Assembly: GCA_965662715.1 (NCBI GenBank)
Contig: CBFIIS010000003.1
Location: 1 to 58,423 of the forward strand
Direction of reading: 5' to 3'
DNA length: 58,423 nucleotides
DNA from: Candidatus Poseidoniaceae archaeon
GTDB lineage: Archaea; Thermoplasmatota; Poseidoniia; Poseidoniales; Poseidoniaceae
Shown piece by piece: positions 3,424 through 54,031 of this stretch (positions are counted from its first letter, which is position 1; each line of letters begins with the position of its first letter). Below the pieces are notes generated by a model that searched no databases, was not told the origin of the DNA, and saw nothing but the letters and a program-made list of their open reading frames with translations. Both the position numbers and the translations under genes were made by a program.

Positions 3424-3429
3424 CATCAA
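3424..3429 (-). promoter_or_regulatory. Putative non-canonical TATA element TTGATG
   Basis: 23 nt upstream of ATG 3400; the same spacing recurs across the window. Confidence 0.5.
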
Positions 3430-3464
3430 CGCTTCTCCTACTGGAGGATGGAATCTGGTTGGAA

Positions 3465-4085: not shown

Positions 4086-4095
4086 AGTGCTACCG

Positions 4096-4115
4096 ATATA
4101 TAACCACTATATAAA
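4096..4115 (-). promoter_or_regulatory. tbp promoter: canonical TATA box TTTATATA (4115-4108) plus a second TTATATAT (4103-4096)
   Basis: Minus strand reads TTTTATTTATATAGTGGTTATATATCGGTAGCACT-ATG. Confidence 0.75.
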
Positions 4116-4169
4116 TAAAAGGCAGACGCCTTGGTTCTGTAGATTCTCTAAATGTGACACTGCGGACGC

Positions 4170-14967: not shown

Positions 14968-15090
14968 TCACCAGTGGAAAAATCGGGTGAAGGATGCGGC
15001 AACGATGGCTGCTGTTGAGTGATATAGGGTATTTGCCACCTTCTTTGGTAGGCTAAGGCAAGAAAAGGTGTAATCCAAGAAACCAATGCG

Positions 15091-15096
15091 TTCAAA
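15091..15096 (+). promoter_or_regulatory. Putative TATA-position element TTCAAA
   Basis: 23 nt before ATG 15120. Confidence 0.55.
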
Positions 15097-15119
15097 AATC
15101 CCACAGGGTAGGACATGCC

Positions 15120-24548: not shown

Positions 24549-24651
24549 CCTCACCCATGGGCAGGGACCAAAAAATGAACATTTCAATGATATCATTTTT
24601 CCTCAAATTGCCCCAATAGACAGTTTTTGGCATAGTAGCGAAGGGGTATCA

Positions 24652-24665
24652 TTCAAGTTCTTGAA
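24652..24665. promoter_or_regulatory. Palindrome TTCAAG-TT-CTTGAA; left arm is the promoter hexamer of the 1723-aa gene
   Basis: 6-2-6 inverted repeat; the left arm ends 23 nt before ATG 24681. Confidence 0.55.
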
Positions 24666-24680
24666 CGCACAGCAAGAAGC

Positions 24681-27600: not shown

Positions 27601-29852
27601 TCGATTCAGTCAATCCACAAGTCCTGAGTACATCCATGGATTTGTACGACCATCGTACACCTTCAAGCACTCAGACGATTCAAATTCAAATCTCCGATCA
27701 ACCCCTGCTACCGACCGATGTTCAAGCGATGGTGTGGCGTGAATGGATCGATGATACCAACATGAACAAATGGCCAGATGGTGATGAATACCAATCCTTG
27801 GGGTTGTATATTCCTAACGATTTGACGAGCCTCATTGGTCAATATACGCTTTTGCTCGATGACACCGGAGGCAGTTTGGGGCAAAAGGTTGCAGTGTACA
27901 TTACCGGTACTGATGATGCAGGCCAACACCTCGAAAAAGGAGGTTCAAATGAGAGTGGAGAACACTTGTTCATGTACCAATTAGCCGTTGATGGTGCACC
28001 AACCATCGAGCCAGGTGCTTACGCCTTCGAATCCGGCCGTGAACCGTGGCTCCACCCCCAGACTCCATACGTACTCAATGTCGAATTGAATGAACCAAAC
28101 GGTGGCTCCGACCTCACCGACGTATTTGTCGAACTCGCATCCAATCAAGGCAGCGATGTCCTTCCAATTCAGTGGGATTTCACCACAGGAAACTGCACGA
28201 CAACAAGCCCACACCTGATCGTTCTCGACTGTACCATGCTTGGTGCGGATGGTCCTGCGGACCCATATGAACGAGAAATCACGCTCAACATTGAATTCAT
28301 GCTTGCGTGGACAACACCCGATTTGGGTGAAACACGACGAGAACCAGGCGTCCGAGTCATTGATCGTGCTGGACAAGAGGTGTTCAAAACCTTCCCAGAG
28401 CACCGGTGGCGATTTTCCGCAGCGATGGAAATTCCAGAGGAGTCTGTGGCCCTCGTTCTGTCCCAAGGCACCTTACTGGGCGATGGTGCACGTCTTGCAC
28501 CCAGCAGCCCAATGGAGATTGCTGGCGGGGTTGTGTTCAGTCAGACCAATGCTGTCCCAGTCTTTGATTGTCAAGTGGATGTCTTGTTTGCCGGCCAGAC
28601 GCTTTCGGCAACAACCTATGAGGGCATTTGGTCAATGGAGCTTACAGCACCATCCGAATCGGGAACGCTCCCTCTCACATGGAGCATTGGCTGTCTTGAA
28701 GGACAGGGCGTCGATGCAACAGATAAGGAAACTTCAGTTCGATGGATCATTGTCGATGGTACAGGGCCCGAACCCGTTGAAGTCCTGAATCCGCGGCCAC
28801 AAGCGATTTTAGCAGCCGATTCCCATGAAGTTCGCGTCCTTCTGTCCGAGGAGGGTGGACTTGAAACCGATTCACTCGAGCTGGTTTGGTGGGTCGAAGA
28901 GAAAGCCACTGGCGATCGACTCCGCAATGGTGTTGAGCCCCTCGAACTTCTTGGGACAGAAACTTCAGGACTTCGCTTGGAAGTTGTTGGAAGCATTGAT
29001 CTGAGCATCATTACGCCAGAAATGCTCGAGAACAGACTTGCCCTTCACGTCGTCGTAGCGGGACGAGATCTTGCCGACAACGACATTTTGGGGCTTGGCG
29101 GCACCCCCGCAGGGACTCCGGTTGGCGTGTGGGATATGGAATGGCTCAAGCCTGAATTCGACATCGAACAAGGCGGGATCGAATACTCCCGTGTCATTAT
29201 CGAAGTTGGTCAGACCTCCATCGTCACTGCATACGTCAAAAACACCGGTACACTCGACGGAACAGTCGATCTGGTCTTCACGATTGTTGATGCTGACGGA
29301 AACCGCTCAACCTTGAGGCGAACCAGCGCCGAAGTACCGCAAAGCGGAGAAGTTGCGGTTCAAGTGGATTGGAACCCTGATTCTCCAGGGTTGCAGTGGA
29401 TCGAAGTCTCTTTGGAAAACGAGATCACTTCGAACGGCCCGTCGATTGATGTCCGGCCGGCACGTGAAGAATCCTTGACAGAACGGGTGTTTGGTGATGT
29501 CAATCCAATCATCGGTTCTGTGGCTGGTTTACTGTTCATATCCATCCTTGTGACTGGCCTCATTTACGCTACACGCATGACGCGCAAGCGTGGTTCAAAG
29601 GCCGAATATGACTGGGATGAATATTCTTCGTCATTTGAAGACGATGAGGACGATCCAGACGAGGACGATTCGACCCTCTCCTCGACAGTAGAAACCACAA
29701 CCGCCGCCGCATCAACGGCCACAACTCAAGCAACACAAGAGGAAGAAACCGATTGGGTGCGAGGCTCTGATGGCTACTGGTGGTACCACGACAAAGAAGC
29801 AGATGAATGGTGGTACAAAGATTCACAAGGAAACATCGTAAGGCACGACTAA
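24681..29852 (+). CDS. Giant (1723 aa) secreted surface glycoprotein with C-terminal CARDB-like domain, TM anchor and acidic/Trp-rich tail
   Basis: Signal peptide; many N-x-S/T sequons; VKNTGTLDG...DWNPDSPG CARDB-like; TM IIGSVAGLLFISILVTGLIY; tail WVRGSDGYWWYHDKEADEWWYKD. Confidence 0.85.
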   Translation: MAGASGLKTALFLGVLMVLGGPLNTMVMHHDDAPEHIELSDHIVAQAIAGENSTFLLPGNDVASTSFTLDVPSDAPITNVHLSMEPSVQPTQTGFTWDSNAVWSASSAVHNGTFGSDDVLTGDGGGTLWDFNTNAGGWTFSNSYSARVTSPACGINGTTGGSLRTYAGSTYATSPVIDFSGVSAMPFHAWVHEGRSGCGETPDGGEDLQFQYKTASGTWTTFNTFAGGGSQTSNFQYMTNLPPAALHTTSQVRIHQTSGSSTCCDYWFVDDVHFATPPSADWTSPTIGFGASDFQKVNAGPWAPLYLDAAVPAGGQLNWTILDGGTNQPIEGFHGSGAGWIPTNALDWTQHTSIKVHFYLEPAPDGRMASIYSLSGDGLYASQFQQDPTELGWTLGGNAYYAPFAPEHPNTPPSVNGSDGDTLLSPWLSTSGAVASAMVTAEHSNANISIRYAENEPWAQISEPFSVNLAQAEGTTGRIQVQFSTDYSLATSNGSTNSTNTTTPEWSVSGLELGLMAGLQPATPSIDFEGDGIFEWGGSDARVGSWGMQDRFENGQTSMAVNPGISGYATGKAWVPVTDLSSFSFSAVSYNGNLDGVLLRVGNDEIANWSLNGSAYLALDSNQLDLFTTTLASQTSTVGALGTSFAEVTFEITGTGDVTLGGLAIPYATGTSIDAGSDSSFVLALNTIRFGLTPSNGLHQITVPFSSSTPGGLHVAVEGMNTSSAVQMVGTEMLIDDPVLTPSQRWQTMNTTYNLYGSSASLARLDVTDGTTTGTWLLPMSGSTPVGIGSFEHIELHPDSPLVVIENGVETTISITFRIEPTWDDAEQLRVTSRLVLTNTVISIPSVHVWGGPGVQGYENDLEIQDVVFTDVDNGRTLNSADYYLKAGIDVAFSARIGFEGLNTIDAFADGDALLSLYRGETMVANTTSLADNFWNYTDTVPFTFGELTWRLEITSINGSGLTEDAVFERTFHIDSVNPQVLSTSMDLYDHRTPSSTQTIQIQISDQPLLPTDVQAMVWREWIDDTNMNKWPDGDEYQSLGLYIPNDLTSLIGQYTLLLDDTGGSLGQKVAVYITGTDDAGQHLEKGGSNESGEHLFMYQLAVDGAPTIEPGAYAFESGREPWLHPQTPYVLNVELNEPNGGSDLTDVFVELASNQGSDVLPIQWDFTTGNCTTTSPHLIVLDCTMLGADGPADPYEREITLNIEFMLAWTTPDLGETRREPGVRVIDRAGQEVFKTFPEHRWRFSAAMEIPEESVALVLSQGTLLGDGARLAPSSPMEIAGGVVFSQTNAVPVFDCQVDVLFAGQTLSATTYEGIWSMELTAPSESGTLPLTWSIGCLEGQGVDATDKETSVRWIIVDGTGPEPVEVLNPRPQAILAADSHEVRVLLSEEGGLETDSLELVWWVEEKATGDRLRNGVEPLELLGTETSGLRLEVVGSIDLSIITPEMLENRLALHVVVAGRDLADNDILGLGGTPAGTPVGVWDMEWLKPEFDIEQGGIEYSRVIIEVGQTSIVTAYVKNTGTLDGTVDLVFTIVDADGNRSTLRRTSAEVPQSGEVAVQVDWNPDSPGLQWIEVSLENEITSNGPSIDVRPAREESLTERVFGDVNPIIGSVAGLLFISILVTGLIYATRMTRKRGSKAEYDWDEYSSSFEDDEDDPDEDDSTLSSTVETTTAAASTATTQATQEEETDWVRGSDGYWWYHDKEADEWWYKDSQGNIVRHD

Positions 29853-39479: not shown

Positions 39480-39588
39480 ACATCATCTCTGGTTAAAATC
39501 ACGACCTTCATTCCTTTGGTACATCATTAATGCAATGTGCATGGGATACGATTCATTACGACTAAACCTATACTTGTCAACCGATTCT

Positions 39589-39594
39589 TTCAAT
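39589..39594 (+). promoter_or_regulatory. Putative promoter element TTCAAT at the head of the extended archaellum locus
   Basis: 23 nt before ATG 39618. Confidence 0.55.
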
Positions 39595-39617
39595 AACCGG
39601 CAGGTGAACGAGCAACT

Positions 39618-40052
39618 ATGGTCGCCTCGCGTATGTCTCGACGTTCTCGTCGATACTTCAAGCGCATTCAACGCGTGTCGACCAAGTTTGACCTGCAGGC
39701 CATCGCCAGCGCCATACAAACCGACCTCGATAAGCGCAATGTGTCCTACGACGAGGCATTGACGCTCGGCAATCTCATCCAGCATCGTTCCGATCAACTT
39801 CCAGGTGACGCCATCGTCTATGCCATTTCAGACCGGGACGCTTATCGGCGCACACTTGAATTGTATTTGCGGGACGCCCTTTTGACCCGAACAGAACAAC
39901 TGCTGCTCTGGGAAGAACGCCGACGCCTTGGGATCACCGAACAAGAACATGAACGTCTTCTCCATCAACTATTAGCTCAATGGAAGAGCCAAGGAAAGCG
40001 AGTCACCATCGACCGCTTCGAAAAGCCTGGCGGAGGTGAAGCATCTGCGTAA
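39618..40052 (+). CDS. Hypothetical cytoplasmic helical protein: basic N-terminus, TerB-C/ENT-like C-terminal motif
   Basis: MVASRMSRRSRRYFKR; AYRRTLELYLRDALLTRTEQLLLWEERRRLGITEQEHERLL. Confidence 0.75.
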   Translation: MVASRMSRRSRRYFKRIQRVSTKFDLQAIASAIQTDLDKRNVSYDEALTLGNLIQHRSDQLPGDAIVYAISDRDAYRRTLELYLRDALLTRTEQLLLWEERRRLGITEQEHERLLHQLLAQWKSQGKRVTIDRFEKPGGGEASA

Positions 40053-43000
40053 TCAGTCATCTTCTTCCACAAGACTTGCTTTCTGCTTGATTCTTCTGTT
40101 CTTGATTCCAATAGCAACTCCACTTGTCGCCACATCAGGCGCTCAACCAACGGGACGAGCTGCACCTGATTTCAGTGTGAGTTTGATGACCATGAGTGGT
40201 GCCGGGTCGATCAACCGTGGGACTGGAATCATCGTTGAACCAGCAGAGCACGACATTCGAGTTGTGGTGCGCAACACTGGAGATGTCGGTGGATCTGCAT
40301 CGTTGCAACTCGTCCATAAGGGCTCACCAACTGCGGGCGAGTACATTGTCACAACCATTTCTCTTGGCAACATTCCGGCGCTCACGACCTCAAATCCAAT
40401 CATTATTCCATGGACGGCAACAACAGGCGACGATCAAACCCTCTTCGCTCGTGTCTCTGGCAACGGAGACAGCAACCCGGCAAACAACGAACAACGAAAG
40501 GACTTCGATGTCAAGAATAACCACAGCGGTATATCTGTCTCGGACACTGTTCCAACCTTGGACCCAGGTGAAACAAGCGTCGGGTTGACCCGTAGCGTTC
40601 AAACCATCAATGCCTCTGTGCGCAACAACGGTGTGAAAAACATCTCATCGGTCATGCAACTCACCTTGACCGAACAAGCAAATCCGTCAAATTCCTTTGT
40701 GTATTATTCCAACACGCAAACGCTACAATCAGGTTCACTCTTTGCTCCCTCAAGCCCGAAAGACCTCACGCTGTCCTTCGACCCATCTGCGCTCTCTGGG
40801 CTATGGACTTTAGAAGTCAAAATCCTCTTCAACGGAACGCTTTGGACGGATGATCCGACCATCGCAACCGTGACTGTTCGACTTTCGAATTACACTGCTT
40901 CTCTTTCATCTCTCGGTGATCGTTCCATTGAACCGGGGCAGACTGGAACCCTGACCTTCTTGCTCAAGAACACTGGCGGTCTACAGGATTCATATCGAAT
41001 CGATTCGATCACAACCAACCCACTCACTCGAAACTGGGCCGATGTTTCATCGGTTGGTAGTTCGACTGCTGCGCTGTCTCCCGGGGCAACAACTTCGATA
41101 GGCATCCCTGTGACGGTGCCACTAGGTGAAAACAGATCAAATGCCTCTGTAATCACAATTACTCTCCTTTCGATCCAAGACGGATACACGCTCGTCACGA
41201 CAGCCGTTGTTCAAGCGGGCGAATCATACATTGCTTCCATCGAGATGCCATCGACGGTTACAGAATTGCTTCCCGGTGATTCAAACACCATCATGGCGAA
41301 TGTCACAAATGATGGCAACGTCGGCGGCGAATTCACGTTCGATTGTGGCCTCTCTGTCGCCGCAATAAATTGGGTTTTGGACATACAAGGGGAGGAATGC
41401 GACCAATGGTCGACCTTCATCAATCGCTCTGCAACGGTTCAAATCCCAATCAATGTCAAGGTCCCACCGATCAAGAGCCCTCTCGACCCCGGTGAATTCA
41501 ACCTTGCAGGTCAACCGTTGCAAGTATGGCTGCAAGTACGAGCCGCAGGCGGCGGGCTCCCGACTCAGGCCTCTGCTGGAATTGAAGTCCTTCCAACAAT
41601 CGTTGTCGACCCTGGCCTGCCTGTCGAAGAACTCGTTTTGACCGAAGAAGATGTCATCGCTGCCAGAAACGGCCAGGGCCTCGAGGATGTCCTCGGACTG
41701 AATGTGGAGGTTCGCCACAATCTCTTTGCAGACATTGATGAAACCCTTAGCGCTGATATTGAAGTCAGTGGCTTATCCTTCCTTGCAGCGAATACCGGTG
41801 GATTTTCTGAAGCTGGTCGCTGGAGTGCTGTCGTTTCACCACCTGAACTTACGGGACTGAAGCCCGGCGACACTTCGCCAGCCATTCTTGCGTTGCAAGG
41901 TCCTGACGATGATTATCCTCTGGCAGGCACAATCACCCTCTCGGTCACAGTCACGCCCACGCTTGGCGGGGTTCACGCAGGAAGCGGGGTCACCGCGAAT
42001 CCAGTGACTCGTAATTTGTCAATCGTGATCCCCTCAGTGCTCGGTGCAGAAATCCTTGAAGATGGACCAGTGGATGTGCAAGTCGGTGTTGAAACCGCTG
42101 TTGCTTTCCCATTCGCTAACATCGGAAACGACTTGACTTCCTATCGTCTTCGCTTGGCTGACGTGCCAGATGATTGGATCGTCCAATTCAACGGGACCAG
42201 CGACACCATTGACAACCTCTCTGCTGACGTTGCAGATTTCCCAGCAACAGGGTCTGCACACCAAAGCATTGTCGAACTGCTCATCCAAACCGATCCCTTT
42301 GTGCCAGCGAATTCGATTGTCCCTCTGACCATTACCATCGAAGAGCGAGACACTGGCGCCTCCATCGGAGAGCATATTCTCCCCGTAAGGGTCGGAGAAT
42401 TGAGAAACGGAACCTTGTTCCCTCTGACCCAACATATTTCCGTGGATCCAACTGATTTCGATGAATTCAAGACCATCAAGGTCTCCAACACAGGTAACGC
42501 ACCAACCACGTATTATGTTTGGATTGACGATGCCCTTGCAGGTGATGTTATTTTCGAACTTGACTCAAATCCTTCCATGCTCGTAGCGCCCGGGTATGAT
42601 GACATCATCAAGATCAATGTGATTCCAACTGCGGCTGCGAGCGCCGATCAAACATACGAGGCGGTGGTTTGGGTCGCTGATTCAACTGGCGCAGTCAATA
42701 TGTCTGCAAACATTACCGCGAACATCACAAAGAGTTCCGACATCAGAATCGATGCACCACTTGTGATTGGTGTCACACCCGGCCAAATGACCAACATCGA
42801 ATTCAACGTGACCAACATTGGAAACCTACAGGAATCAATCCTTATCATGCCTTCAATCGAAGGCAATTGGTCGACCGACGTCACTGAAATTGGAATGACG
42901 CTTCAAATCAATCAAACCATTACCGGACAAATTGTCGTTAGCGTTCCAAGTCTTGGAGGCGAAGAATCGCTGATGGATGGTTCGGTACACAACCTCACGC

Positions 43001-44952
43001 TCGCCGTGTATGACGCCTCGACTTCAGATTTCAAAACAAGCTACACAATCCAACTTCGAGTTGGTGCTTTGTTTGCTCTCGAAGCAGAAGCCTGGCCGGC
43101 TGTTATGGAATTCTACAGGCAAGGGACTCGCACTTGGGAAGTTGCCCTCACAAACACTGGAAACCGAGATGTAGAAGTCAATGTAGGTTATTCAGTGAAT
43201 AGAGCTGGTCTCGATGTTGGATCGAGTGATTGGACAATGGTTGACGGTGCACCAACGACCCTTTATCTCCCAGTCGGTGTTCCAATCACTCACATATTCA
43301 GTATCGAAGCATTGAATTTCGAACCCGATCTTTCGCTCCAAGCAGATTTCAAAATCTATTACGATCCTGTTGACGAAGCCGTTCAAGGCAACGCCTCATA
43401 TGAGACCAATCTCGTGATGTCGAGGTTCTTCAGCACTGGAGACATCATTCTCAGACCTGAGGTCGGCGATCCTCCAATCGATATTGACATCACATACTCT
43501 CACATCCCGAACGGACAAGCACTCTCCGCTGCCTATGAAATTGAATTGTGTGGTGCGAATCGAATCCTTGACTTCGCAGCCCTCAACCTCAACGACGCGG
43601 ATTATCCGTGGGAATTCAAGGTCGTGCTTCCAGACGCGAACAACACCGAAGTGATTCTACCGATTAACGCAGCATCATGCACATTTGGCACCCAAGGTGA
43701 ATCCTCAAGGATTTCATTACCAACTCGCAGCGCTTGGGATACATCCTCTCCGCTCAAAATTTCAGTCAATGCTCCTGAGCGAGGTAAAATTCTCTCAGGC
43801 GATGGCTGGGACCTCACGTTCCGACTCTATCACCCAACAGAGAACAATAATTATTCCACATTCGATGAGGAAACATTCAGTTTCCAATTGGACGTCTTCG
43901 CCGATCCATTGGTTGAATCCCTCGAAGTCATCACCATCGAAGAAGGTGAGGAATTCGATCTCTTGCTCACCGTGACCAACGCAGGTACGGCCACTGCTCT
44001 GGGTGTCGATGTCGCCCTTGTGTGCCCAACGTCGACCATTCTAAGTGGTCCTCTGGCTGAGCCAATGATTGGTATTCTTGGCCCGGGTGAATCTGTCGTG
44101 CTCAATTGGCGCATTCAACCAGATTCCATCGATTGGTGGGAACAGTCTGAAGCATCTGAGTGTACGGCGACCGTTGATGCCTTCTACATGGACAAGAACG
44201 TCGTCGGCAATGATGTACGAACCATTGAGATGAACGTTGAGTCTTCTTCCCCAGGTGTTTCAACCAGTTTCATAGCATTGATCATTTGTTTCCTCGCCTC
44301 CATCATCCTCCTTCGACTGACCGGACAAAATGAGAAATTCAGACTCATGGCAGTGTACGCTGGTGTGCTCGGCTTTGGCTTCTCATTCCACGTCCTTGAT
44401 GTTCCGTTCTGGGGTATCGCTGTTCTCATTGCAACAGCTCTGTGGATTTGGCGCATGAGTTGGTCAAGCGCTGAAGAATTCAAATTGATTCATGAGGACT
44501 ACCAACGCGCTCGTCGCGGTGTCTCAACGCTCTACACAGACCACTTCGATGCTCTGAAGGACAGCCGCCGCCAATTGAGCGTGATTCTGGCGGTTCCTGT
44601 GCTTGGTTTCATAGCGGTGATCCTCGGTCTTCCGCCTCAACTCTATACCGATCAAAACAACATGGTTTCGTTGCTTGTTTACATTACAATCGTCATGCTC
44701 GGAGTGTGGTTCATCATCCTTAGAGCAGATCGTGCCTATGGTAATCTGTACGGTCGCCTCACCGATGTTGAGGTCAAAGCAACTCGGATCGAACGAGACC
44801 TTGGCGACCCAGCACGTTTGTTCAATGAATTAGCGGGCGACGGCTTGAACCTCGACGAAATTTTCGGAGATGTTTCGAGCAACGCTACTGTTGGCGCGCT
44901 TGTCGGTGCAGAACAATCTCAAGAGGAGGTGAATGATGATGTCCAAAGATGA
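40036..44952 (+). CDS. Giant (1638 aa) surface protein with CARDB/NEW3-like Ig repeats, ~5 C-terminal TM helices and cytoplasmic tail
   Basis: Signal peptide; repeated xxNxG motifs (VRNTG, LKNTG, VTNDGN, ANIGN, VSNTGN, VTNIGN, LTNTGN, VTNAG); DSNPANN; five hydrophobic segments near the C-terminus. Confidence 0.85.
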   Translation: MKHLRNQSSSSTRLAFCLILLFLIPIATPLVATSGAQPTGRAAPDFSVSLMTMSGAGSINRGTGIIVEPAEHDIRVVVRNTGDVGGSASLQLVHKGSPTAGEYIVTTISLGNIPALTTSNPIIIPWTATTGDDQTLFARVSGNGDSNPANNEQRKDFDVKNNHSGISVSDTVPTLDPGETSVGLTRSVQTINASVRNNGVKNISSVMQLTLTEQANPSNSFVYYSNTQTLQSGSLFAPSSPKDLTLSFDPSALSGLWTLEVKILFNGTLWTDDPTIATVTVRLSNYTASLSSLGDRSIEPGQTGTLTFLLKNTGGLQDSYRIDSITTNPLTRNWADVSSVGSSTAALSPGATTSIGIPVTVPLGENRSNASVITITLLSIQDGYTLVTTAVVQAGESYIASIEMPSTVTELLPGDSNTIMANVTNDGNVGGEFTFDCGLSVAAINWVLDIQGEECDQWSTFINRSATVQIPINVKVPPIKSPLDPGEFNLAGQPLQVWLQVRAAGGGLPTQASAGIEVLPTIVVDPGLPVEELVLTEEDVIAARNGQGLEDVLGLNVEVRHNLFADIDETLSADIEVSGLSFLAANTGGFSEAGRWSAVVSPPELTGLKPGDTSPAILALQGPDDDYPLAGTITLSVTVTPTLGGVHAGSGVTANPVTRNLSIVIPSVLGAEILEDGPVDVQVGVETAVAFPFANIGNDLTSYRLRLADVPDDWIVQFNGTSDTIDNLSADVADFPATGSAHQSIVELLIQTDPFVPANSIVPLTITIEERDTGASIGEHILPVRVGELRNGTLFPLTQHISVDPTDFDEFKTIKVSNTGNAPTTYYVWIDDALAGDVIFELDSNPSMLVAPGYDDIIKINVIPTAAASADQTYEAVVWVADSTGAVNMSANITANITKSSDIRIDAPLVIGVTPGQMTNIEFNVTNIGNLQESILIMPSIEGNWSTDVTEIGMTLQINQTITGQIVVSVPSLGGEESLMDGSVHNLTLAVYDASTSDFKTSYTIQLRVGALFALEAEAWPAVMEFYRQGTRTWEVALTNTGNRDVEVNVGYSVNRAGLDVGSSDWTMVDGAPTTLYLPVGVPITHIFSIEALNFEPDLSLQADFKIYYDPVDEAVQGNASYETNLVMSRFFSTGDIILRPEVGDPPIDIDITYSHIPNGQALSAAYEIELCGANRILDFAALNLNDADYPWEFKVVLPDANNTEVILPINAASCTFGTQGESSRISLPTRSAWDTSSPLKISVNAPERGKILSGDGWDLTFRLYHPTENNNYSTFDEETFSFQLDVFADPLVESLEVITIEEGEEFDLLLTVTNAGTATALGVDVALVCPTSTILSGPLAEPMIGILGPGESVVLNWRIQPDSIDWWEQSEASECTATVDAFYMDKNVVGNDVRTIEMNVESSSPGVSTSFIALIICFLASIILLRLTGQNEKFRLMAVYAGVLGFGFSFHVLDVPFWGIAVLIATALWIWRMSWSSAEEFKLIHEDYQRARRGVSTLYTDHFDALKDSRRQLSVILAVPVLGFIAVILGLPPQLYTDQNNMVSLLVYITIVMLGVWFIILRADRAYGNLYGRLTDVEVKATRIERDLGDPARLFNELAGDGLNLDEIFGDVSSNATVGALVGAEQSQEEVNDDVQR

Positions 44953-46000
44953 TGTCAACGTTATTGACGACCCAGATATGATTCTGGATGAAGTCGATGC
45001 CTCTTTCGACCTCGAAGCCCCGGGATTGGATGATTCTCTGACAACAGCACCGGAGATGACCGAGGGCGAAGTCCAGGAAGCCCGTGCTGCAATTGCGGCG
45101 AGCAAAGATTCCGCAGACCGCCTCATCGCCGCCTCAAGAGAACTCGAATCTTTGGTGTTCGGCGTCGTTCAGGACGAATCAAATTCATTGGCTGGAACAG
45201 AAGTCGATATTGCAGATGCCAAACTGTTCCTCAATGCTCACAAACTGAAAGCGGCTCGCAAGTCGGTCAAGAAAGCTGAACAATCCCTCGCACTGCTCGA
45301 GGAAGATGTGCTTCACCTCCGGCGAAACATTGCGATGCTTCATAGATTGCTCAATGAAAAGAAAATCAATGAAGAAGAAATTGAAACAATTCTTCTCCGT
45401 CTTCATTCAGCAACAGGTGCTGCAGAAATTGGTGATGTTGGTGTCGCTGCTGGTGAGGTCGAACACCTTGTGGACGATCTCATCGGTGGGAACACCGCTA
45501 CCCTCAATCCTTTCCTCTTCCGTCATTTCTGGCTCGGTCTTGACACTCGGTGGCCAGCGGGTGGAGATGAAGGCGTCTTGATTGTCCGTCTCATCAATGA
45601 TGGTCCTGTGGCTATGCCGAGCATGCGCCTGGCTCCTCCAGTGCCTGAAGGATGGACCTGCGTTCCTTCCTCGGTTGATCTACCAATCATCGCCCCGGGC
45701 GGAAATCTACCGCTCCGGTTTGAAGTCAAGGCGAACCGTCGGTATGGCGCAGATGAAATCCCCCTCTCACGCAAGTTGGCAATTGCCACCTCGTACGAGA
45801 TGCGAACGGGCGATATTACCGCAACAATTCGCGCTCAGAATCGTTCGATGGAGCCCCTGCAAGACATTGTGCTCTCGCCATGGATTCCACCCGGCTTTAC
45901 CACAGATTCAGTCCCATTCATCAACCGTCTCGCACCTGATGAAGTCGCTCTTATTCGCATGCCTTTGCGCATCAACATTGGTTCAGGAGGGAATGCTTGA
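44933..46000 (+). CDS. Hypothetical protein: acidic N-terminus, helical/coiled-coil core, two C-terminal NEW3-like beta domains, no signal peptide
   Basis: SD GGAGGTGA then ATGATGATG, overlapping the upstream gene; PVPEGWT and WIPPGFT motifs. Confidence 0.8.
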
Positions 46001-46056
46001 ACCGCTCACAGTCCACCCTAATGGGGGATACAAAAAAAACAAAAATGGTGAAAAAT

Positions 46057-46617
46057 ATGAAAGAAAATACGAACGAAAACAGCGATAATATCGCTGCAAT
46101 TGGTATTGGTGCAATGATTGTGTTCATTGCCCTAATCCTTGTTGCGGCGGTTGCAGCAGCGGTCATTATTCAGACCGCTGAACAATTGCAACAAAATGCA
46201 CAAAGCACTGGCGAAGAGACAACTGACTTGTTGTCCTCCAAGGTGAACATCAAGGGTGCCGTGATCACTGGAGCTGGTGCAAACCAGATCTACATCACCT
46301 TCGAATTGGCCCCTGGATCTGATCCAGTCACAGCAAACACTGTGGCTTGGTCAATCATGTGCAGTGGAACCCCAAGCGGTGACGACTACGGAAACTTTGG
46401 TGCCGCACAGCAAGTTGGCGGTGCAGCTCTTGTCGGTGGCGTCCTCAGTCCGGGCACAACCTACACAATCGAACTAACCAACGCTGGTGGCCTTGCTACC
46501 TGCGTTCCAACAGCAAACCAAGACCACTCGTTGATGATTCAATCCGGTAAGGGTGGATTCACATACGAATTGCTCAACTACGGCGGAAACATTGCAGCAG
46601 GCGAGGTGATTGTATGA
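46057..46617 (+). CDS. flaB: Archaellin (archaeal flagellin) 1
   Basis: [28 protein letters not shown]; LAPGSDP; start 46057 behind SD GGTGA. Confidence 0.93.
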
Positions 46618-47195
46618 AGTCCTTCAACAATGAAGAACAACAAAACGACACAGTGGCAGCTATCGGTATCGGTGCAATGATTGTGTTTATTGCATTGATC
46701 CTTGTTGCAGCAGTTGCAGCAGCAGTGATTATTCAAACCGCAGAACAACTCCAACAAAACGCTCAGAAGACCGGTGAAGACACGGCAGACAACATGGCTG
46801 GAAAAGTCATGATTAACTCCGTCTACGTCGACACCAACGCTGCAGGAGAAGACTACCTTCTCTATGTTCGCTTGGCTCCTGGCAGTGAAGCAACAACAAC
46901 CACGACCATCTCATACCAGGTGTTCTGTGCGAACGGTGTTGCGGAAGGTGTCCTTCTCGCTGCAGATGTCGCTCCAATGACCACTGGTACATTCGGAACA
47001 GCGACCATGGCAGCCTCAACAGGATACATCATGACCATCGATGGAAACAACGGCGGTACAGATTGTAGCCCAGACGCAGTCAACGGCGGAAACCCAATTT
47101 CCACCGCACAATTGTTCATTCACGTTGGAAAGGGCGGTACAACCTACGAGACCCTGACCATCGACAGCAGCACTGCCGGATCAAAAATTGTCTGA
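46614..47195 (+). CDS. flaB: Archaellin (archaeal flagellin) 2
   Basis: Same N-terminal helix as archaellin 1; LAPGSEA; SD GAGGTGA; ATGA overlap. Confidence 0.93.
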
Positions 47196-47248
47196 TGTTC
47201 ATCTAGGGGCACAGCACAGCAATGTGCGCCCTTAGAGGAGGAATTATC

Positions 47249-48082
47249 ATGGCATGGCCATTTGGCAACAGTGCTCAGAAGGACCAAGGGGAAGACGCAT
47301 CACTTACTGAAGATCGGCTCAAAATCATGGCGAACATCGCCATTGAACAAGTCCCCCTTCCTGAAGAAGGAGAACTTGGAGAAGAAGATGCGTGGACCAT
47401 CTCACCCGGCCCCACGAAGGCACGCCTCAACAGCATCGGCAGTGTACCAAGCGTGGCAGCAAGCCTCGCTCCAGCACCAGCCGCACCGGTGAACACCACC
47501 GTCGACACCTCGGGTCTCGAACGTTTGATCAGCAGCCGTCTCGACATGGTCGAGGATGTGCTTCGCATGGTTGAAGTTCGACTCGAGCAACCGTCAGAAG
47601 CAGCAGCTTCGGGCGAATCTGCGGAAGGTGTCGATGTGGAAGACGCAGCACTCAGTGGTGACACTATTGTCACTGCAAGCGGTGAAGTTATTCCAGTCTC
47701 AGGAAACGATCGTCTCAAAGAAGTGGATGAAGCACCATTGGTGGAATTGTACGAAGCACAAGCTCTCGCTGCAAATCCATTCTTGCATGCTCCATCGCGC
47801 GGTGCAACTGCCAACGCAAACAGCGTTGGTGCACCAACTGTCTCCGCCCTCTTGCTCGACCATATGTCGGGCATGGCTGCAGTCAGTTTTACTCAGAAGG
47901 CCATGGCCTCGGGTATGCTAAGCGACGAAGAAGGACGTTCAGTCATGGCAATTGTTCAACTTGCAGAACCAGGTGAAACTGAGGCTGCTCTTGATGACCA
48001 TTTACCACACAAAGAATTGCTCACATTCTCATCGCTCGTCAGTTCATGGCGCAGCGTGAGAACACTCCGAGGTGAAGTCTGA
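47249..48082 (+). CDS. Divergent protein in the FlaC/D/E (ArlCDE) position
   Basis: Sits between the archaellins and flaF; acidic, short coiled coil; C-terminal LDDHLPHKELLTF only weakly recalls FlaD/E; SD GGAGG before ATG 47249. Confidence 0.55.
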   Translation: MAWPFGNSAQKDQGEDASLTEDRLKIMANIAIEQVPLPEEGELGEEDAWTISPGPTKARLNSIGSVPSVAASLAPAPAAPVNTTVDTSGLERLISSRLDMVEDVLRMVEVRLEQPSEAAASGESAEGVDVEDAALSGDTIVTASGEVIPVSGNDRLKEVDEAPLVELYEAQALAANPFLHAPSRGATANANSVGAPTVSALLLDHMSGMAAVSFTQKAMASGMLSDEEGRSVMAIVQLAEPGETEAALDDHLPHKELLTFSSLVSSWRSVRTLRGEV

Positions 48083-48083
48083 G

Positions 48084-48767
48084 ATGGCTGGCTCGGTAGG
48101 TATTGGTGGCCTCATCATTGGGGTCTCATTGTTGGTCGTGTTTTCCATGGCCGTTCAAACAATGTCGTATCAAATGGAAACCTCAATCGAGGTTTTGGAC
48201 GCTGCGGCTGATCCCCTACCAAGTTATGTTATTGCAGATGCATCTCTTCTCGAAGGCGCGATTCTCACTGTATCCGTCACAGGGACCGGTCTTGGTTCAG
48301 GTGTCGTCGATGGAACCCTTGTCGCAAATGGTGGGGTTGGTTTGGGTGGTTTTTCTGCTACTTTTACTGTGTCATCGGGGGAAATAGATACGAATTCCGT
48401 GGTCATCACCAGCCACGGCTCGTACTCAACCCTCCCTACGAGCATTACAGTAAGTGGTCAAGGAACACTAAATCCTGCACCAACATTCACCTTTACTACG
48501 GGCGATATCTTCTATGCTAACCTTACCAACACTGGTGACAAGACAATCAAAACAAACGATGTATGGTTGTTCTTTGATGGCGAGTCGCCAACAAAGTTCA
48601 GTTCAGTCCACCGTGATGGTTGGGCTCAAAATCAGGCCACACCTCCGTTCGCATCAGGAAACTGGTATGTTGGAGAAACGGTTGATTTGATTTTACCAAA
48701 CCCACCAACACTTACCACACGCTTTGCAGCCACATCCGAAGGATTCATTGCTGCAGAGGCGATTTGA
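48084..48767 (+). CDS. flaF: Archaellum accessory protein FlaF (ArlF)
   Basis: N-terminal TM; NLTNTGDKTI...WLFFDG...WYVGET; position before flaG. Confidence 0.75.
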   Translation: MAGSVGIGGLIIGVSLLVVFSMAVQTMSYQMETSIEVLDAAADPLPSYVIADASLLEGAILTVSVTGTGLGSGVVDGTLVANGGVGLGGFSATFTVSSGEIDTNSVVITSHGSYSTLPTSITVSGQGTLNPAPTFTFTTGDIFYANLTNTGDKTIKTNDVWLFFDGESPTKFSSVHRDGWAQNQATPPFASGNWYVGETVDLILPNPPTLTTRFAATSEGFIAAEAI

Positions 48768-48776
48768 GGGATTACT

Positions 48777-49274
48777 ATGGCAGATGGCGGTGCTTCGACT
48801 TTTATTATGCTCATCACAGGGCTTTTGATTTCGAGTTCAGTCAGTGCCTTGTTGATCACTGAATGGTCTTCTACAGCAAAGGTAGCGCAAGTACAGCAAC
48901 GCGGAGTTCAACTCGATTCAGAATTGGATATCGAATTTGCAGGCGACCCTATGATGGTGGATTTTGATGATTCAACATTACCAGAAACAATCACGTTTTA
49001 CATTCAGAACAGTGGGCTGCATTCCATGGATGAATCAAAGATGACCGTCGTGGTTGATGGTAGAGAACCGACGTCTGTTTCTGTCTCATTGGTTGGCACG
49101 CCTACGCCAAGTTCATGGGTTCCAAACGAACTCGCCATGATTGTCCTGGAATATAATCCGGCCTCTGGCTACAGTGATGGCGATGATGTCGCACTGTATG
49201 CCATTGCTACATCTGAAGTGATTGGCGGCCTTTCATCGAGTGCATCGATGAACATCGAGGTGAGACTGTCATGA
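48777..49274 (+). CDS. flaG: Archaellum accessory protein FlaG (ArlG)
   Basis: MADGGASTFIMLITGLLISSSVS; IEFAGDP; FYIQNSG; VVVDG; WVPNE. Confidence 0.85.
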   Translation: MADGGASTFIMLITGLLISSSVSALLITEWSSTAKVAQVQQRGVQLDSELDIEFAGDPMMVDFDDSTLPETITFYIQNSGLHSMDESKMTVVVDGREPTSVSVSLVGTPTPSSWVPNELAMIVLEYNPASGYSDGDDVALYAIATSEVIGGLSSSASMNIEVRLS

Positions 49275-49999
49275 AGGAAGATCCATTTTTGAAAGCTCAC
49301 AAGCCAAAGGAAGATGGTTTCCCCTATGACTTGGAAACAGATTCACTTGCGGATTCGATGGGTCTACGCTTACCAAACCGTTCACTCTATGTGTTGCAAG
49401 GTGCGGTCGGTGGCGGTAAATCACTGATCTCTCAACGTCTTGCCTATGGCATGGTGGAAAACGGGGTCAAGGTCCTCGTCATCACAACAGAACTCACCAC
49501 GCGCGGCTGGATTGAACAAATGGAATCCATTGGTTATGGTGTGACAGATGCAATTCGCGAGGGTACACTGATGGTGTTCTCACGCTTTGGAACGATTGCC
49601 GAATCCCTACCAAATGTTGGGCTTGATGAGTTGCTTGAATCTGAAGCAATTGCCCTTGCCGATGTTGTCATTATCGATGCAGCGAGTTCACTGATGCCTG
49701 ATTCACTTGAGGAGCCCGAGCGCTTTGCTATGATGCAACGATTAAGACGCATTTGTGCCGATGGTCGTTCATTGATGTTATGTGTTGACCCGGAAGAAAT
49801 GGATCACAAGTTGATGCACAGCATGCGTGCTTCTGCTGAAATAGTGCTTGATTTGACCACCAGCATGATCGGTGGAGAGATCAAAAGAAACATTGTTGTC
49901 ACGAGATTTTTGAGGGCTGCTGGACCAGTCCAGACCTCGATTGGATGGCGAGTTGAACCAAGCATGGGCTTCATCGTCGATATTACAGCCGTGAGCTGA
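49271..49999 (+). CDS. flaH: Archaellum RecA/KaiC-like ATP-binding protein FlaH (ArlH)
   Basis: Walker A GAVGGGKS, QRLAYG, ITTELT, QMESIGY, VVIID, WRVEPSMGFIVDI. Confidence 0.92.
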   Translation: MKEDPFLKAHKPKEDGFPYDLETDSLADSMGLRLPNRSLYVLQGAVGGGKSLISQRLAYGMVENGVKVLVITTELTTRGWIEQMESIGYGVTDAIREGTLMVFSRFGTIAESLPNVGLDELLESEAIALADVVIIDAASSLMPDSLEEPERFAMMQRLRRICADGRSLMLCVDPEEMDHKLMHSMRASAEIVLDLTTSMIGGEIKRNIVVTRFLRAAGPVQTSIGWRVEPSMGFIVDITAVS

Positions 50000-50013
50000 T
50001 GGAGGGATTTTGA

Positions 50014-51729
50014 ATGGCCGATGAACCACGCTTTGCCAAAGGGGACCTCAATGGTGTCATGGCAGCTCATCCACACGTTGCTGATTGGGTGCGTGACTTC
50101 GAAGCTCGATATGGGGCTCGCCCAATCTACTATGGTGAATTGGACCGAGATGCCAAAAAAGAACGACCTCTCAATTTGATTTACTTGGCCAAGGAGCCAA
50201 TTTTTGTTCACATTTACGAACCACCTGCTGATGAAGAAGGTGGTGGCCAAGTGTTGTGGTTTGGATTGGAACCACAACTCACTGAAGAAGAAGAAAACAT
50301 TCGTCGGGAATTGACCGAAACCTTACTTCAAGAAGCACCTACTGCTCCATCCTTTACTACTGATAATGAGTTCGAAAATATCCTCCGCCAAATGATTGAG
50401 CGGTACACGGTTCTCGATTCTGAACTTGGGGTGACCCCGCGACGACAAGGTCGTATGTGGGAAATGCTGGGCATGGATGACAAACGGCTCATTGTCAATC
50501 AAGAACAACGAACGCGTCTCGAGTACATCGTCATTCGAGACCTGATTCGTAATGGGCCACTTGAACCTCTGCTCTCCGACGAGATGCTGGAAGATATTCA
50601 CTCCATTGGGCTCAAACACGTCCACATGGATCACAAGGTGTTTGGCATGGTCACCTCAAACATTCGATTTAGGGAACGAGAAATGCTTTCTCGATTCCTT
50701 CGAGCTATGTCGGAACGTATTGGTCGCCCGGTGTCGGATAACAAGCCAATTATTGACGGCGCCCTGCTCGATGGATCCCGTATCAACATCATTTTCTCAG
50801 ACGACGTTTCCATGCTTGGCCCCTCGTTTACGATTCGTAAGTTCGCTGAAGAAACCATTTCCATTACACAATTAATCGCTTGGGGCACCATCTCTTCACA
50901 AGTCGCAGCCTACATCTGGATTTGCCTTGAGTATGGAATGTCTGTACTTGTTTCTGGTGAAACAGCATCAGGTAAGACCACGACCCTTAATGCAATTCTT
51001 CCATTCATCGATCATAACGTCAAGATTTACTCGGCGGAAGACACTCCTGAAGTGAAGGTTCGCCACAAGATTTGGCAACGCCTCGTCACTCGCTCTTCGA
51101 AGAATGAAGAATCTCGCGTCGAAATGTTCGATTTGCTCAAAGCAGCATTGCGTAGCCGCCCACGGTACATCATCATCGGTGAAATTCGTGGTGTTGAAGG
51201 TGCGACCGCTTTCCAGGCCATGCAGACAGGTCACCCTGTAATCGCCACCTTCCACGCCTCTTCAATCGTCAAGATGATCCAGCGGTTTACCGGTGACCCA
51301 ATCAACGTTCCAATTCGTTTCTTCGATAACCTGAATTTTGCAATTTTCCAAGAAGTTGTTGAGGCTCCAGGTGGTGGAATCGCACGACGTGTCACTGGTA
51401 TCGACGAAGTCATCGGCTACAACAAGCACAGCGATGGTGTTCTCACTCGTGGTATGTTCGAGTGGGATCCTGTCAAAGACAAGCATTACTTCCGAGGTAT
51501 GTTCCAGAGCCACTTGCTCGAAAATAAGATTGCTGCAATGGCTGGTTTTGCGAACAAGCGTGATATTTACGATGAGATGCTCAAGCGAGCCGCAGCTCTT
51601 CAGAAAATGGTCGATCGGGACTTAACTCACTACGATGACGTCTTTGATTTGCTTGGGATTTATTACAACAGTGGCTGGGACCACTTCGACCGTGCCATCG
51701 ATTCATGGAAGGGTGTCAACCACGATTGA
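50014..51729 (+). CDS. flaI: Archaellum motor ATPase FlaI (ArlI)
   Basis: DGSRINI, FTIRKF, SGETASGKTTTLNA, EDTPE, ALRSRPRYIIIGEIRG, QAMQTGH, TFHA. Confidence 0.96.
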   Translation: MADEPRFAKGDLNGVMAAHPHVADWVRDFEARYGARPIYYGELDRDAKKERPLNLIYLAKEPIFVHIYEPPADEEGGGQVLWFGLEPQLTEEEENIRRELTETLLQEAPTAPSFTTDNEFENILRQMIERYTVLDSELGVTPRRQGRMWEMLGMDDKRLIVNQEQRTRLEYIVIRDLIRNGPLEPLLSDEMLEDIHSIGLKHVHMDHKVFGMVTSNIRFREREMLSRFLRAMSERIGRPVSDNKPIIDGALLDGSRINIIFSDDVSMLGPSFTIRKFAEETISITQLIAWGTISSQVAAYIWICLEYGMSVLVSGETASGKTTTLNAILPFIDHNVKIYSAEDTPEVKVRHKIWQRLVTRSSKNEESRVEMFDLLKAALRSRPRYIIIGEIRGVEGATAFQAMQTGHPVIATFHASSIVKMIQRFTGDPINVPIRFFDNLNFAIFQEVVEAPGGGIARRVTGIDEVIGYNKHSDGVLTRGMFEWDPVKDKHYFRGMFQSHLLENKIAAMAGFANKRDIYDEMLKRAAALQKMVDRDLTHYDDVFDLLGIYYNSGWDHFDRAIDSWKGVNHD

Positions 51730-51739
51730 GGGATGATGA

Positions 51740-53542
51740 ATGCAGCGAATGTCGATGTGGCAAATCGCGTTGCGGCGACTTGAAATGCCCATTCTTCGAT
51801 TTCTTGCTTTGTTCGTAGGAGGCGCTGCATTTGCGGGCTTTTTCATGTCCATTGTCATCATCCTCCTTACAGGAGGATTGGCGGAAGGCGCCCTCTTTTC
51901 TGGACTGTCTGGTGTCCTTCTTCTTATTCTATTACCAATCCTCTCTGGAGGTGCGGCGATTGTTTTTCCAATCCTCGACGTTCAACGCTCAGCAACCCTC
52001 ATCGAAAAGGAGATGCATATGTTCATCACAAGAATGGGGATTTTATCCCTCGGTGAAGTTGGGGCCCAATCCATCTTCGATATCCTCAAACAGATGAGGG
52101 ACTATGGTGAACTTGCAACGGAAGTTCAGAGGATTGAAACTCTTGTCGATAAATGGCATACTTCCCTGCCCGAAGCCTCTCGTATTGTAGCCCAACAAAG
52201 CCCAAGTCCGTTGTGGGCTGACTTCCTTGATCGCATGGCGTTCTCCATCGAAGCGGGCCAACCAATCGATGAGTTCATGCGCTCAGAGCAAGAGACGATT
52301 GCAGAACAGTATACAACCCTGTATGACACTCGTTTGGAATCCGTTGACACAATGAAGGAGATCTACGTCTCTCTGGTTTCTGCAGGATTGTTTGGTCTTG
52401 TCATCGCTGGTATTCACTTGGTTCTTTTTGAAACCGGTTCGCCAACCGATGCTCCAATAGAAATCGCCAGCCGGTTGCGTTTCTTGCTCTTAGCGGGACT
52501 TCTTTTCACCATCGTTCAGATTGGCGGTGTTGTCGCTTTCAATTCGACGATTCCAGAAGACCCAACGTTTGCACGTGACGAAATGGACACGCCGTTCCGG
52601 ATTAATTTCCTGAGAGCATTGGTTGGTGCCACCGTCATTTCGACATTTTTGTTCATCATCACGGTCATTGTGATTTTAGCATCATGGCAAGAGGTCAGCG
52701 CCCAATGGGACCGCTATGGACTTCTCCTGATCGTTGCGCCCCTCTCCCCAATGTTGATCCCGGCATTCATGGTTGGTCGAGAAGAAGGCCAAGTCCTGCG
52801 ACGAGACGAAACATATCCTGACTTTATCCGCGCTTTAGGTGGTACTGCCCAAGCGCGTTCCGCAGAACCATCGGCCACAATCAAAGCATTGAGGGGTATT
52901 GATTTTGGTGTTCTGGACAATTCCATCGATCGCCTAGAGAAGCGTTTGTCCACACGAATTGACTCGGACCGAGCATGGGATTACTTCACTGCGGATACAA
53001 ATTCAGCAGTAATTTCGAGGTACACTCGAATTTACATCGAGGGTTCACAGTCTTCGGGTCAACCCGCAGCGACAGCAGAAATGGTTTCTCGCTCTGTAGG
53101 TAATCTGCTCTCCTTGCGCCGCCGTCGTGCTCTATCTGCCAATACGATGCGGGGTGTCGCTCTTGGATTACTGATTGCAACCGTGACCAGCCTCAACGTC
53201 ACCATCGCTATTGTTCTCAAGTTAGGCGATTCAATTGCTGGTGTTGCTGAAGGGTTCGTTGATACCGATGTCTCGGCACTTTCACGCTTTGGTTCTGACC
53301 TCGCCCTGCCGGTGATGGAAGATGCATCAGCTGTTGGTGAAAACATCAGGATGTTCAAGATCATTGTCTCCATTCTCATTCTTTTCCAAGTTGCAGCGGT
53401 TTCCATGATTTCCAATCGTCTGAGGGGTGGTGGGAAAACAACTGCTCTTGGCCAAGCCATCCAATTGCTTTGGGTGGCAGGTATCACTTCGTTCCTCACA
53501 TCGATTGTTCTTGAGAGCGCTTCGGGAATCTTCGGAGTCTGA
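51740..53542 (+). CDS. flaJ: Archaellum membrane platform protein FlaJ (ArlJ)
   Basis: Polytopic; MHMFITRM, SPSPLWADFLDRMAF, RRDETYPDFIRALG; follows flaI. Confidence 0.92.
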   Translation: MQRMSMWQIALRRLEMPILRFLALFVGGAAFAGFFMSIVIILLTGGLAEGALFSGLSGVLLLILLPILSGGAAIVFPILDVQRSATLIEKEMHMFITRMGILSLGEVGAQSIFDILKQMRDYGELATEVQRIETLVDKWHTSLPEASRIVAQQSPSPLWADFLDRMAFSIEAGQPIDEFMRSEQETIAEQYTTLYDTRLESVDTMKEIYVSLVSAGLFGLVIAGIHLVLFETGSPTDAPIEIASRLRFLLLAGLLFTIVQIGGVVAFNSTIPEDPTFARDEMDTPFRINFLRALVGATVISTFLFIITVIVILASWQEVSAQWDRYGLLLIVAPLSPMLIPAFMVGREEGQVLRRDETYPDFIRALGGTAQARSAEPSATIKALRGIDFGVLDNSIDRLEKRLSTRIDSDRAWDYFTADTNSAVISRYTRIYIEGSQSSGQPAATAEMVSRSVGNLLSLRRRRALSANTMRGVALGLLIATVTSLNVTIAIVLKLGDSIAGVAEGFVDTDVSALSRFGSDLALPVMEDASAVGENIRMFKIIVSILILFQVAAVSMISNRLRGGGKTTALGQAIQLLWVAGITSFLTSIVLESASGIFGV

Positions 53543-53581: not shown

Positions 53582-54031
53582 ATGTATATGCAAGCAATAC
53601 CCCCGCCTCCAACTCCAGCCGCCCAGCCAATGCCAGTTTCGCCATATCAACCAGCGAAAGGCTTCGACAAAACCAAGTTGGCTTATTCATTTGAGCGATG
53701 GTTGATGATCGGTATCGTTCTCATTCTGGCTGCAACCCTATTTGCACAAGTCGTAACTATGTGGGGTCCTCCTGACGTCCCAGGGGCTGAAGCAACATTG
53801 GACGATCTATCTGATTATCAATCAGACCTTGATGGCTACAACGATCTCGTGCGTGTCGTCGGCTCAATCGGAACCATGCTACAAACTGTGGGTATGGGTC
53901 TCATTGGATATGCACTTCTTCGAGAATCTCACAGCACAACGAGTGAACATACGGCACTTCGAGTGACTGGTATGATTCTGGGTGTGCTTGTGGTCGCAAA
54001 CTTGGCGGCTCGTAATCTGAACATTCTGTGA
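53582..54031 (+). CDS. Hypothetical membrane protein (3 TM, Pro-rich N-terminus)
   Basis: Fills the gap between flaJ and nth; three hydrophobic segments; start 53582 or 53588. Confidence 0.7.
   Translation: MYMQAIPPPPTPAAQPMPVSPYQPAKGFDKTKLAYSFERWLMIGIVLILAATLFAQVVTMWGPPDVPGAEATLDDLSDYQSDLDGYNDLVRVVGSIGTMLQTVGMGLIGYALLRESHSTTSEHTALRVTGMILGVLVVANLAARNLNIL

Follow-up and report, generated by a model that had tools for sequence, protein, structure and literature searches.

Euryarchaeal archaellum clusters of the arl1 type, as laid out in the available text of Jarrell et al. 2021 (PMC10117864), lie on one strand and run from archaellins through accessory genes, ending in arlF/G-like ones, to arlH, arlI and arlJ. 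In Marine Group II a (MGIIa), all genera carry an archaellum operon and no che genes are known, according to the available text of Rinke 2018 (PMC6461757) and Orellana 2019 (PMC6864105), and Tully 2019 (PMC6336850), in its available text, reports that the operon holds unannotated orthologous proteins and that its flanks are conserved in MGIIa. Here we describe a 58,423-nt stretch of DNA (contig CBFIIS010000003.1 of assembly GCA_965662715.1; "the window"), which contains the archaellum locus of a Poseidoniaceae archaeon, and three orphan genes at its head; the Poseidoniaceae names carried by the homologues place it in MGIIa. We write arl for what is also called fla, so that arlB1 and flaB1 are the same gene, and use g1, g2, g3, X and P as labels for orphan or extra genes. 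The order, on a single (+) strand, is g1, g2, g3, arlB1, arlB2, X, arlF, arlG, arlH, arlI, arlJ, which resembles the arl1-type cluster. Unlike that cluster as described in the text cited above, the locus has three orphans preceding the archaellins in apparently the same unit, the single orphan X in the slot where ArlC/D/E go undetected, and no che genes that could be found.

An initial annotation of the window had proposed that a three-gene module leads into the archaellum genes. The open reading frames (ORFs) lie where it placed them, the archaellum genes do follow on the + strand, and g1 (39618-40052), g2 (40036-44952) and g3 (44933-46000) are real, conserved orphan genes which in Poseidoniaceae always stand between a conserved promoter box and arlB1. 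Related loci were collected with a g3 profile from one-genome-per-species contigs, the best 80 of 169 stretches being taken with 10-kb flanks and compared by tblastn of the window proteins. None of the 80 deviates in gene order or strand, and the three genes are not unlinked from arlB in any locus that reaches far enough. All eleven genes from g1 to arlJ are present in 47 loci, and the other 33 hold contiguous runs cut by contig ends. Of 64 complete g2 ORFs, 61 are intact with 1625-1784 aa, and the short remainder adjoin N runs (two) or a contig start (one). Identity across loci is 66-99% for g1 and 64-97% for g3. Two contigs of one metagenome-assembled genome (MAG; L031 and L033) both carry g2-g3-arlB, pointing to a strain mixture or a duplication, and two loci (L038, L051) place the archaeal operon in MAGs that bear bacterial titles (Salipiger, Rhodobiaceae), for which binning errors are the probable cause. 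We tentatively favor the interpretation that g1, g2 and g3 form an archaellum accessory which is specific to this lineage, spans the envelope and acts as an anchor or scaffold, although we hold it with somewhat less than even confidence.

Several features favor expression of the module and the archaellins from one promoter. The promoter-like element that the initial annotation placed at 39589 is real: the sequence CCGATTCTTTCAATAACCGG (39581-39600, + strand) is conserved upstream of g1, unique in the window, and was matched in 0 of 100 shuffles. When the window was aligned with 63 loci (n=64), the only high-information stretch between -70 and -1 upstream of g1 was that from -39 to -18. The box TT[CTG][ATC]A[TAG]AA occurs in 51/64 of these regions and the variants TTTGATAA and TTCTAATAA in 12/64 and 1/64, respectively; with variants counted, the conserved box is present in 64/64. 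The TATA-like box TTCAATAA is centred ~26 nt before the g1 ATG, which is the distance expected of a leaderless archaeal transcript, and the g1 transcript would thus be leaderless or nearly so. Boxes of the TTCAA/TTTAT type at about -36 to -23, without a Shine-Dalgarno (SD) sequence, are found before other first genes of the window (TBP, CysRS, IleRS, a peptidase and others; examples at 4086-4130, 24634-24680 and 15060-15119), a pattern which suggests that transcripts in the window are mostly leaderless. In genes that closely follow another one, GGAGG or GGTGA stands at -8 to -15 instead, and arlB1 is one of these.

Within the module the genes overlap and are SD-linked, as had been claimed: g1 and g2 share 17 nt, g2 and g3 share 14 nt (g3 start 44939) or 20 nt (start 44933), and SD sites accompany the overlaps. 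The g3 homologues begin MSK, so the start at 44939, with AGGAGGTGA 7 nt upstream, is the likely one. For g2 the start is either GTG 40036, within the SD-like GGAGGTG, or CTG 40045. The latter codon overlaps the g1 stop at ideal SD spacing and reads CTG in 47, ATG in 12, TTG in 4 and ATN in 1 of the sequences (n=64), which hints at a non-canonical CTG start of g2 in most MGIIa.

Between g3 and arlB1 lie 56 nt in the window and 53-92 nt across the loci (counted from stop codon to ATG inclusive). The initial annotation had seen no clear promoter in this gap, and our results agree: no box of the first-gene type was found there, and an operon-internal SD is present instead. In the window this is the GGTGA at 46046-46050, 6 nt 5' of the ATG at 46057, and GGTGA-N3-9-ATG recurs in all g3-arlB1 spacers examined, which comprise 74 unique locus sequences. 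Between 39475 and 48349 the + strand is free of T-runs of 5 or more, terminator-like sites are not more frequent than chance, no conserved AT-rich stretch occurs near the 3' end of g3, and the window has no Rfam match. Along g3, variation at third codon positions stays even at ~1.2-1.7 bits, apart from dips at codons 141-150 (0.91) and in the last 13 codons (~1.05). These last codons (45962-45997) are G+C-rich with less synonymous variation and include a conserved GGAGG ~10 nt before the stop. These sequence features are compatible with transcription as one unit from the g1 promoter into flaB1. Such a primary transcript would start ~26 nt past the box, at or near the g1 ATG, and would run through g1-g2-g3 and arlB1-arlB2 to arlJ.

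Two predicted RNA hairpins, both on the + strand, flank the archaellin genes. Hairpin 1 (46011-46029, followed by an A-rich tract) lies in the g3-arlB1 spacer, with a folding energy of -10.2 kcal/mol (z -2.2). Among 75 unique spacers z averages -2.5 against mononucleotide shuffles, and 62/75 fall below -1.5. Compensatory changes affect 2/4 predicted pairs, and two clade variants of the hairpin are out of register with each other. The compensatory maintenance of base pairing makes it probable that the spacer is under constraint at the RNA level. Hairpin 2 (47202-47236) stands directly 3' of arlB2, with the GAGGAGG SD of X behind it. Its folding energy is -23.5 kcal/mol (z -5.0), a value reached by 0/200 shuffles. 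At its position most of 66 loci have hairpins of clade-specific sequence, with none evident in a few short spacers. Neither hairpin is followed by a U-run, and hairpin 2 may be an mRNA stabiliser or an attenuator. We infer a single long primary transcript in which hairpins bracket the archaellin segment. The bracketing may give longer life to that segment, or attenuate read-through, such that archaellin would outnumber the accessory proteins.

The 1638-aa g2 product appears to be a surface protein. Its N-terminus is signal-peptide-like, and its ectodomain holds 23 N-x-S/T sequons vs 14 expected and 169 D+E vs 59 K+R. Domain matches are NPCBM_assoc (31.5 bits) and Ig_VWA7 (under its cut-off), and there are three mutually related repeats of ~110 aa and one modelled beta-sandwich. 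The membrane/cytoplasmic domain (residues ~1405-1638; 44248-44949) was delimited by identity, invariant columns and helices in an AlphaFold2 (AF2) model. The model, which is of moderate confidence, has five helices and a tail, two of the helices extending as long cytoplasmic helices (predicted local distance difference test, pLDDT, 66). Of the architecture first proposed for g2, the approximately five transmembrane (TM) segments and the cytoplasmic tail are thus borne out by the model, and the Ig-repeat part is only partly shown by the domain matches and the three repeats. A five-helix anchor is atypical of S-layer or wall proteins, and g2 matched no S-layer family in Pfam or NCBIfam. Searches of its C-terminus yielded generic Ig-like folds only (best E 3.9e-3) and no membrane-domain analogue, no Pfam or NCBIfam family in relaxed scans, and no usable Atlas match; sequence and profile comparison of g2 with the PDB found nothing significant. 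Identity of homologues to the window protein is 0.64-0.75 over residues 1401-1600 vs 0.36-0.59 elsewhere in the protein. Two stretches on the cytoplasmic side are near-invariant, the loop EEF(K/R)LIHEDYQRAR.G.ST.Y.DHF and the tail LYGRLTD.EVK..R.ERDL.DPARL. Kinship of g2 with another giant ORF of the window (24681-29852, + strand) was dismissed, as the two show no similarity. That ORF encodes 1723 aa without a Pfam match at 1e-5, and shares with IleRS (- strand) a 47-nt divergent spacer that contains the palindrome TTCAAGAACTTGAA.

The distribution of constraint in g2 bears on the possibility that it is an adhesin, co-expressed with the archaellum for swimming to and sticking on particles, with g1 and g3 anchoring or regulating it from inside. 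Its ectodomain evolves fast, as exposed binding proteins do, and the co-transcription signals would be the same as for an archaellum accessory. Moreover, the available text of Rinke 2018 (PMC6461757) argues for a role of the MGII archaellum in adhesion since che genes are absent. However, no adhesin domain family was detected, the fold matches being to generic beta-sandwiches, and the strongest constraint is cytoplasmic and not in the ectodomain. We consider an adhesin unlikely.

The product of g1, a 144-aa orphan with an Arg-rich N-terminus, has 553 homologues, all hypothetical and all under Poseidoniaceae or Poseidoniales names, with a mean column identity of 81%. The protein is basic, as first noted (K+R 26 vs D+E 20), and its N-terminus MVASRMSRRSRRYFKRIQR is conserved. 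No relative was found in Pfam, NCBIfam (relaxed scans included) or the PDB. A language-model search of the Atlas returned TerB/ENT-like look-alikes at 0.82-0.84, which are weak and should be taken as a lead only; g1 has no Pfam match to TerB (PF05099) at E up to 5. PADLOC gave a single weak match (E 0.0024).

The conserved Arg-rich end raises the question whether g1 is a nucleic-acid-binding regulator that sets archaellin expression by acting on the promoter element or on hairpin 1. Conservation of the 20-nt element goes beyond the requirements of a TATA box, the element is by eye an imperfect palindrome, and hairpin 1 is conserved just upstream of arlB1. Against this, no DNA- or RNA-binding family was detected in g1, and the overlap of its stop with the g2 start suggests a stoichiometric partner of g2. 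Of the explanations considered here, we find regulation by g1 the least credible.

The third gene, g3, encodes a cytoplasmic orphan of 353-355 aa with a variable acidic N-terminus, a helical or coiled region and two beta-sandwiches. The AF2 model (pLDDT 64, likewise moderate) has helices at 44-184 followed by both sandwiches, in agreement with the coiled-coil plus beta-domain organization described initially. A fold search produced generic Ig-like matches only (best E 6.6e-5, TM-score at most 0.20), and nothing significant emerged from the PDB by sequence or profile. A hidden Markov model (HMM) search of 1.84 billion representatives returned only 61 matches, ~8 of them full-length clusters. 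The orphan X (47249-48082), a 277-aa acidic soluble protein, occupies the slot of ArlCDE or ArlX elsewhere. Its start at 47249 is the most likely since the orthologues begin MAWPF. Its mean column identity is 76%, and it has no Pfam, NCBIfam or PDB relative, relaxed scans included. Neither X nor g3 nor g1 matched ArlCDE or ArlX at E up to 5 in Pfam and NCBIfam, again with relaxed scans. An invariant 10-residue motif with NPF is encoded at 45509-45538 in g3, and an invariant ANPFL at 47774-47785 in X; the NPF/SPF core is kept in distant g3 relatives. From sequence, the NPF of g3 and X could be a common short binding motif or a coincidence. Profile comparison (hhalign) detected no homology between the two proteins.

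A shared motif would also be compatible with the second idea of the initial annotation, namely that g2 is a contact or surface sensor which signals to the motor through its polytopic domain and g1/g3, in place of chemotaxis. The near-invariant loop and tail of g2 point in the same direction. The annotation's observation that no che genes are adjacent was confirmed, with che domains absent from all 37 window ORFs scanned (outside the locus, ORFs of at least 150 aa), and none are reported for MGII in the available literature text. Yet no kinase, receiver, HAMP or MCP domain was found in g1, g2 or g3, the NPF match comprises just three residues, and the g3 and X profiles are unrelated. We regard signalling of this kind as very improbable.

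An envelope-spanning accessory, our preferred interpretation, accommodates these features as follows. The three upstream genes probably build a membrane-spanning surface complex. In it g2 would be a glycosylated surface protein of several beta-sandwiches, anchored in the membrane through its five helices, and its near-invariant loop and tail would dock the cytoplasmic g1 and g3. We propose the docking because the genes overlap and are SD-coupled, and because constraint concentrates on the cytoplasmic side. The resulting complex would act as an outside-to-inside anchor or scaffold by which the motor is positioned and given something to push against. A role in the archaellum is suggested because the module sits between the promoter and arlB1, and a need for such an accessory because no ArlCDE, ArlX or chemotaxis proteins can be recognised in the lineage. 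A joint fold prediction of the g2 membrane domain with g1 and g3 scored 0.06 (mark 0.32), which gives no verdict for or against binding.

Known anchoring systems offer a partial analogy. The ArlF/ArlG stator is anchored to the S-layer (Banerjee et al. 2015, PMC4425475, available text), and the same logic, that a rotary motor requires an immobile point within the envelope, would apply here: the g2 complex could supply that point or be the bound partner. Unlike ArlF/G, g2 is ~10x larger, polytopic, unrelated in sequence and provided with cytoplasmic partners, and ArlF- and ArlG-like genes are present besides. On the motor side, the ArlX ring of Thermoproteota and the ArlCDE and polar-cap assemblies of Euryarchaeota, as presented in the available text of PMC12488501 and PMC10117864, find possible counterparts in g3 (cytoplasmic, with coiled helices) and X, both conserved soluble or membrane-tethered candidates. 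The resemblance has limits in our data, g3 having no HMM relation to any Arl family. ArlX has a TM helix, whereas g3 is without one.

The proposed link to the archaellum should be interpreted with some caution, as a number of observations weigh against it. First, in the same loci synteny is just as strong for the flanking genes bcp, nth and polX as for the module. Because unrelated flanks are equally syntenic, conserved position within one family does not show a common function, and with all 80 loci being MGIIa-like, synteny alone cannot show a functional link. Secondly, g3 relatives occur beyond the sampled loci: 4 full-length clusters are only 30-35% identical to the MGIIa proteins and lie outside the 80 loci, and one distant relative (P0308) is named Thalassarchaeaceae (MGIIb), a group in which FlaB was detected in 26% of MGIIb genomes and most of Thalassarchaeaceae were reported without archaella in the available text of Tully 2019 (PMC6336850). 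Thirdly, the window contains two more giant ORFs, and big surface proteins are common in the genome. Finally, arlB1 could conceivably be transcribed from a promoter within g3, or from an A-rich box of unusual type in the spacer. In known archaella an archaellin gene normally heads the unit. Within the loci sampled, the linkage claimed by the initial annotation is supported by the invariant gene order and the one-transcript features, and synteny by itself is weak evidence.

Alternatively, g1-g3 may be an independent surface operon, encoding an S-layer-like wall protein, or a giant surface protein, with its partners; any read-through into arlB1 would then be incidental and arlB1 would have its own, unrecognised promoter. 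Acidity, sequons and repeated beta-sandwiches are typical of archaeal wall proteins, and the g2 ectodomain has all three. The equal synteny of the flanks, the further giant surface ORFs and the g3 relatives in Thalassarchaeaceae are likewise in keeping with such an operon. It is less easily reconciled with the operon-internal SD pattern of arlB1 and the lack of a first-gene box, or with the lack of a T-run or terminator-like site behind g3. A plain wall protein, moreover, needs no five-helix anchor with near-invariant cytoplasmic parts and two conserved partners. We judge an independent operon to be rather unlikely, if still a serious contender, and it overlaps with an archaellum accessory insofar as g2, as a wall protein, may also be the target that ArlF/G binds.

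A more far-reaching version of our interpretation can also be put forward, and we think it improbable. In it g1-g2-g3 would be an unrecognised class of archaellum component, an anchor that also senses load or contact. The ectodomain would reach a surface or particle, and the loop and tail would relay to g3, g1 and X at the motor. The class would replace both the polar-cap/ArlCDE scaffold and the chemotaxis input in the ocean's most abundant planktonic Euryarchaeota, and processing of a single long transcript, bracketed by hairpins, would determine how much archaellin is made relative to accessory proteins.

The remaining genes of the locus, all on the + strand, could mostly be assigned to archaellum families. 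The archaellins arlB1 (46057-46617; PF01917, E 1.9e-24, 87.2 bits) and arlB2 (46614-47195; PF01917, E 1.1e-18, 68.5 bits) exceed the cut-off of 29.5 bits and have hydrophobic N-termini of the class III signal-peptide type. An ArlF-like gene (48072-48767; 231 aa) has an archaellin-type hydrophobic N-terminus and a weak ArlF match (E 0.033), and is followed by an ArlG-like gene (48777-49274; ArlG 2.5e-14, 53.6 bits, under the cut-off of 110). The NCBIfam assignments are ArlH at 49271-49999 (3.2e-51; 174 bits, under the equivalog cut-off of 215), the ArlI ATPase at 50014-51729 (1.7e-203; 677 bits, over the cut-off of 550) and the platform protein ArlJ at 51740-53542 (1.3e-114; 384 bits, under the equivalog cut-off of 550). 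ArlH and ArlJ are the best matches of their genes though under the equivalog cut-offs. Beyond arlJ, the 149-aa pilin-like P (53582-54031; Pilin_N E 0.007), with a GGTGA SD, is probably the final gene of the archaellum unit. By tblastn, a counterpart of P is absent from five loci (L015, L016, L017, L019 and L021) whose contigs reach past arlJ to nth. The neighbors on the opposite strand are a peroxiredoxin gene upstream and genes for endonuclease III and PolX downstream. A further giant ORF (2-3541, - strand; more than 1180 aa, with PKD domains) runs off the window.

The locus itself has been noticed before. The "putative MGII motility operon" of Tully 2019 (PMC6336850) is the same locus. Its available text counts the genes upstream among the flanks without proposing a function for them, and mentions neither the promoter box nor the SD pattern, the hairpins or the domain anatomy. 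No function is proposed for the three genes in the available text of Rinke 2018 or Orellana 2019 either, and Damashek 2021, Fan 2024 and Pereira 2019 do not mention the module. The supplements of Tully 2019 and Rinke 2018, PDF supplements apart, contain no gene-context table for the operon, and no description of the three genes was found in the literature available in text form. According to the available text of Hou 2016 (PMC5069720), deep-water fosmids have an abundant start site at a gene of the DUF1628 pilin type, which is not equatable with arlB1.

It is debated whether the MGII archaellum is used to swim, to attach or to do both, in part since chemotaxis genes are lacking (Rinke 2018; Tully 2019; Orellana 2019, in the text available). 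Should the link of g1-g3 to the archaellum prove false, the module would still be a family-wide orphan membrane complex. If our interpretation is correct, a conserved, co-transcribed and envelope-spanning orphan complex would be a concrete candidate for anchoring, positioning or informing the motor. The operon would also have an unusual layout in which the archaellins are internal and bracketed by hairpins.

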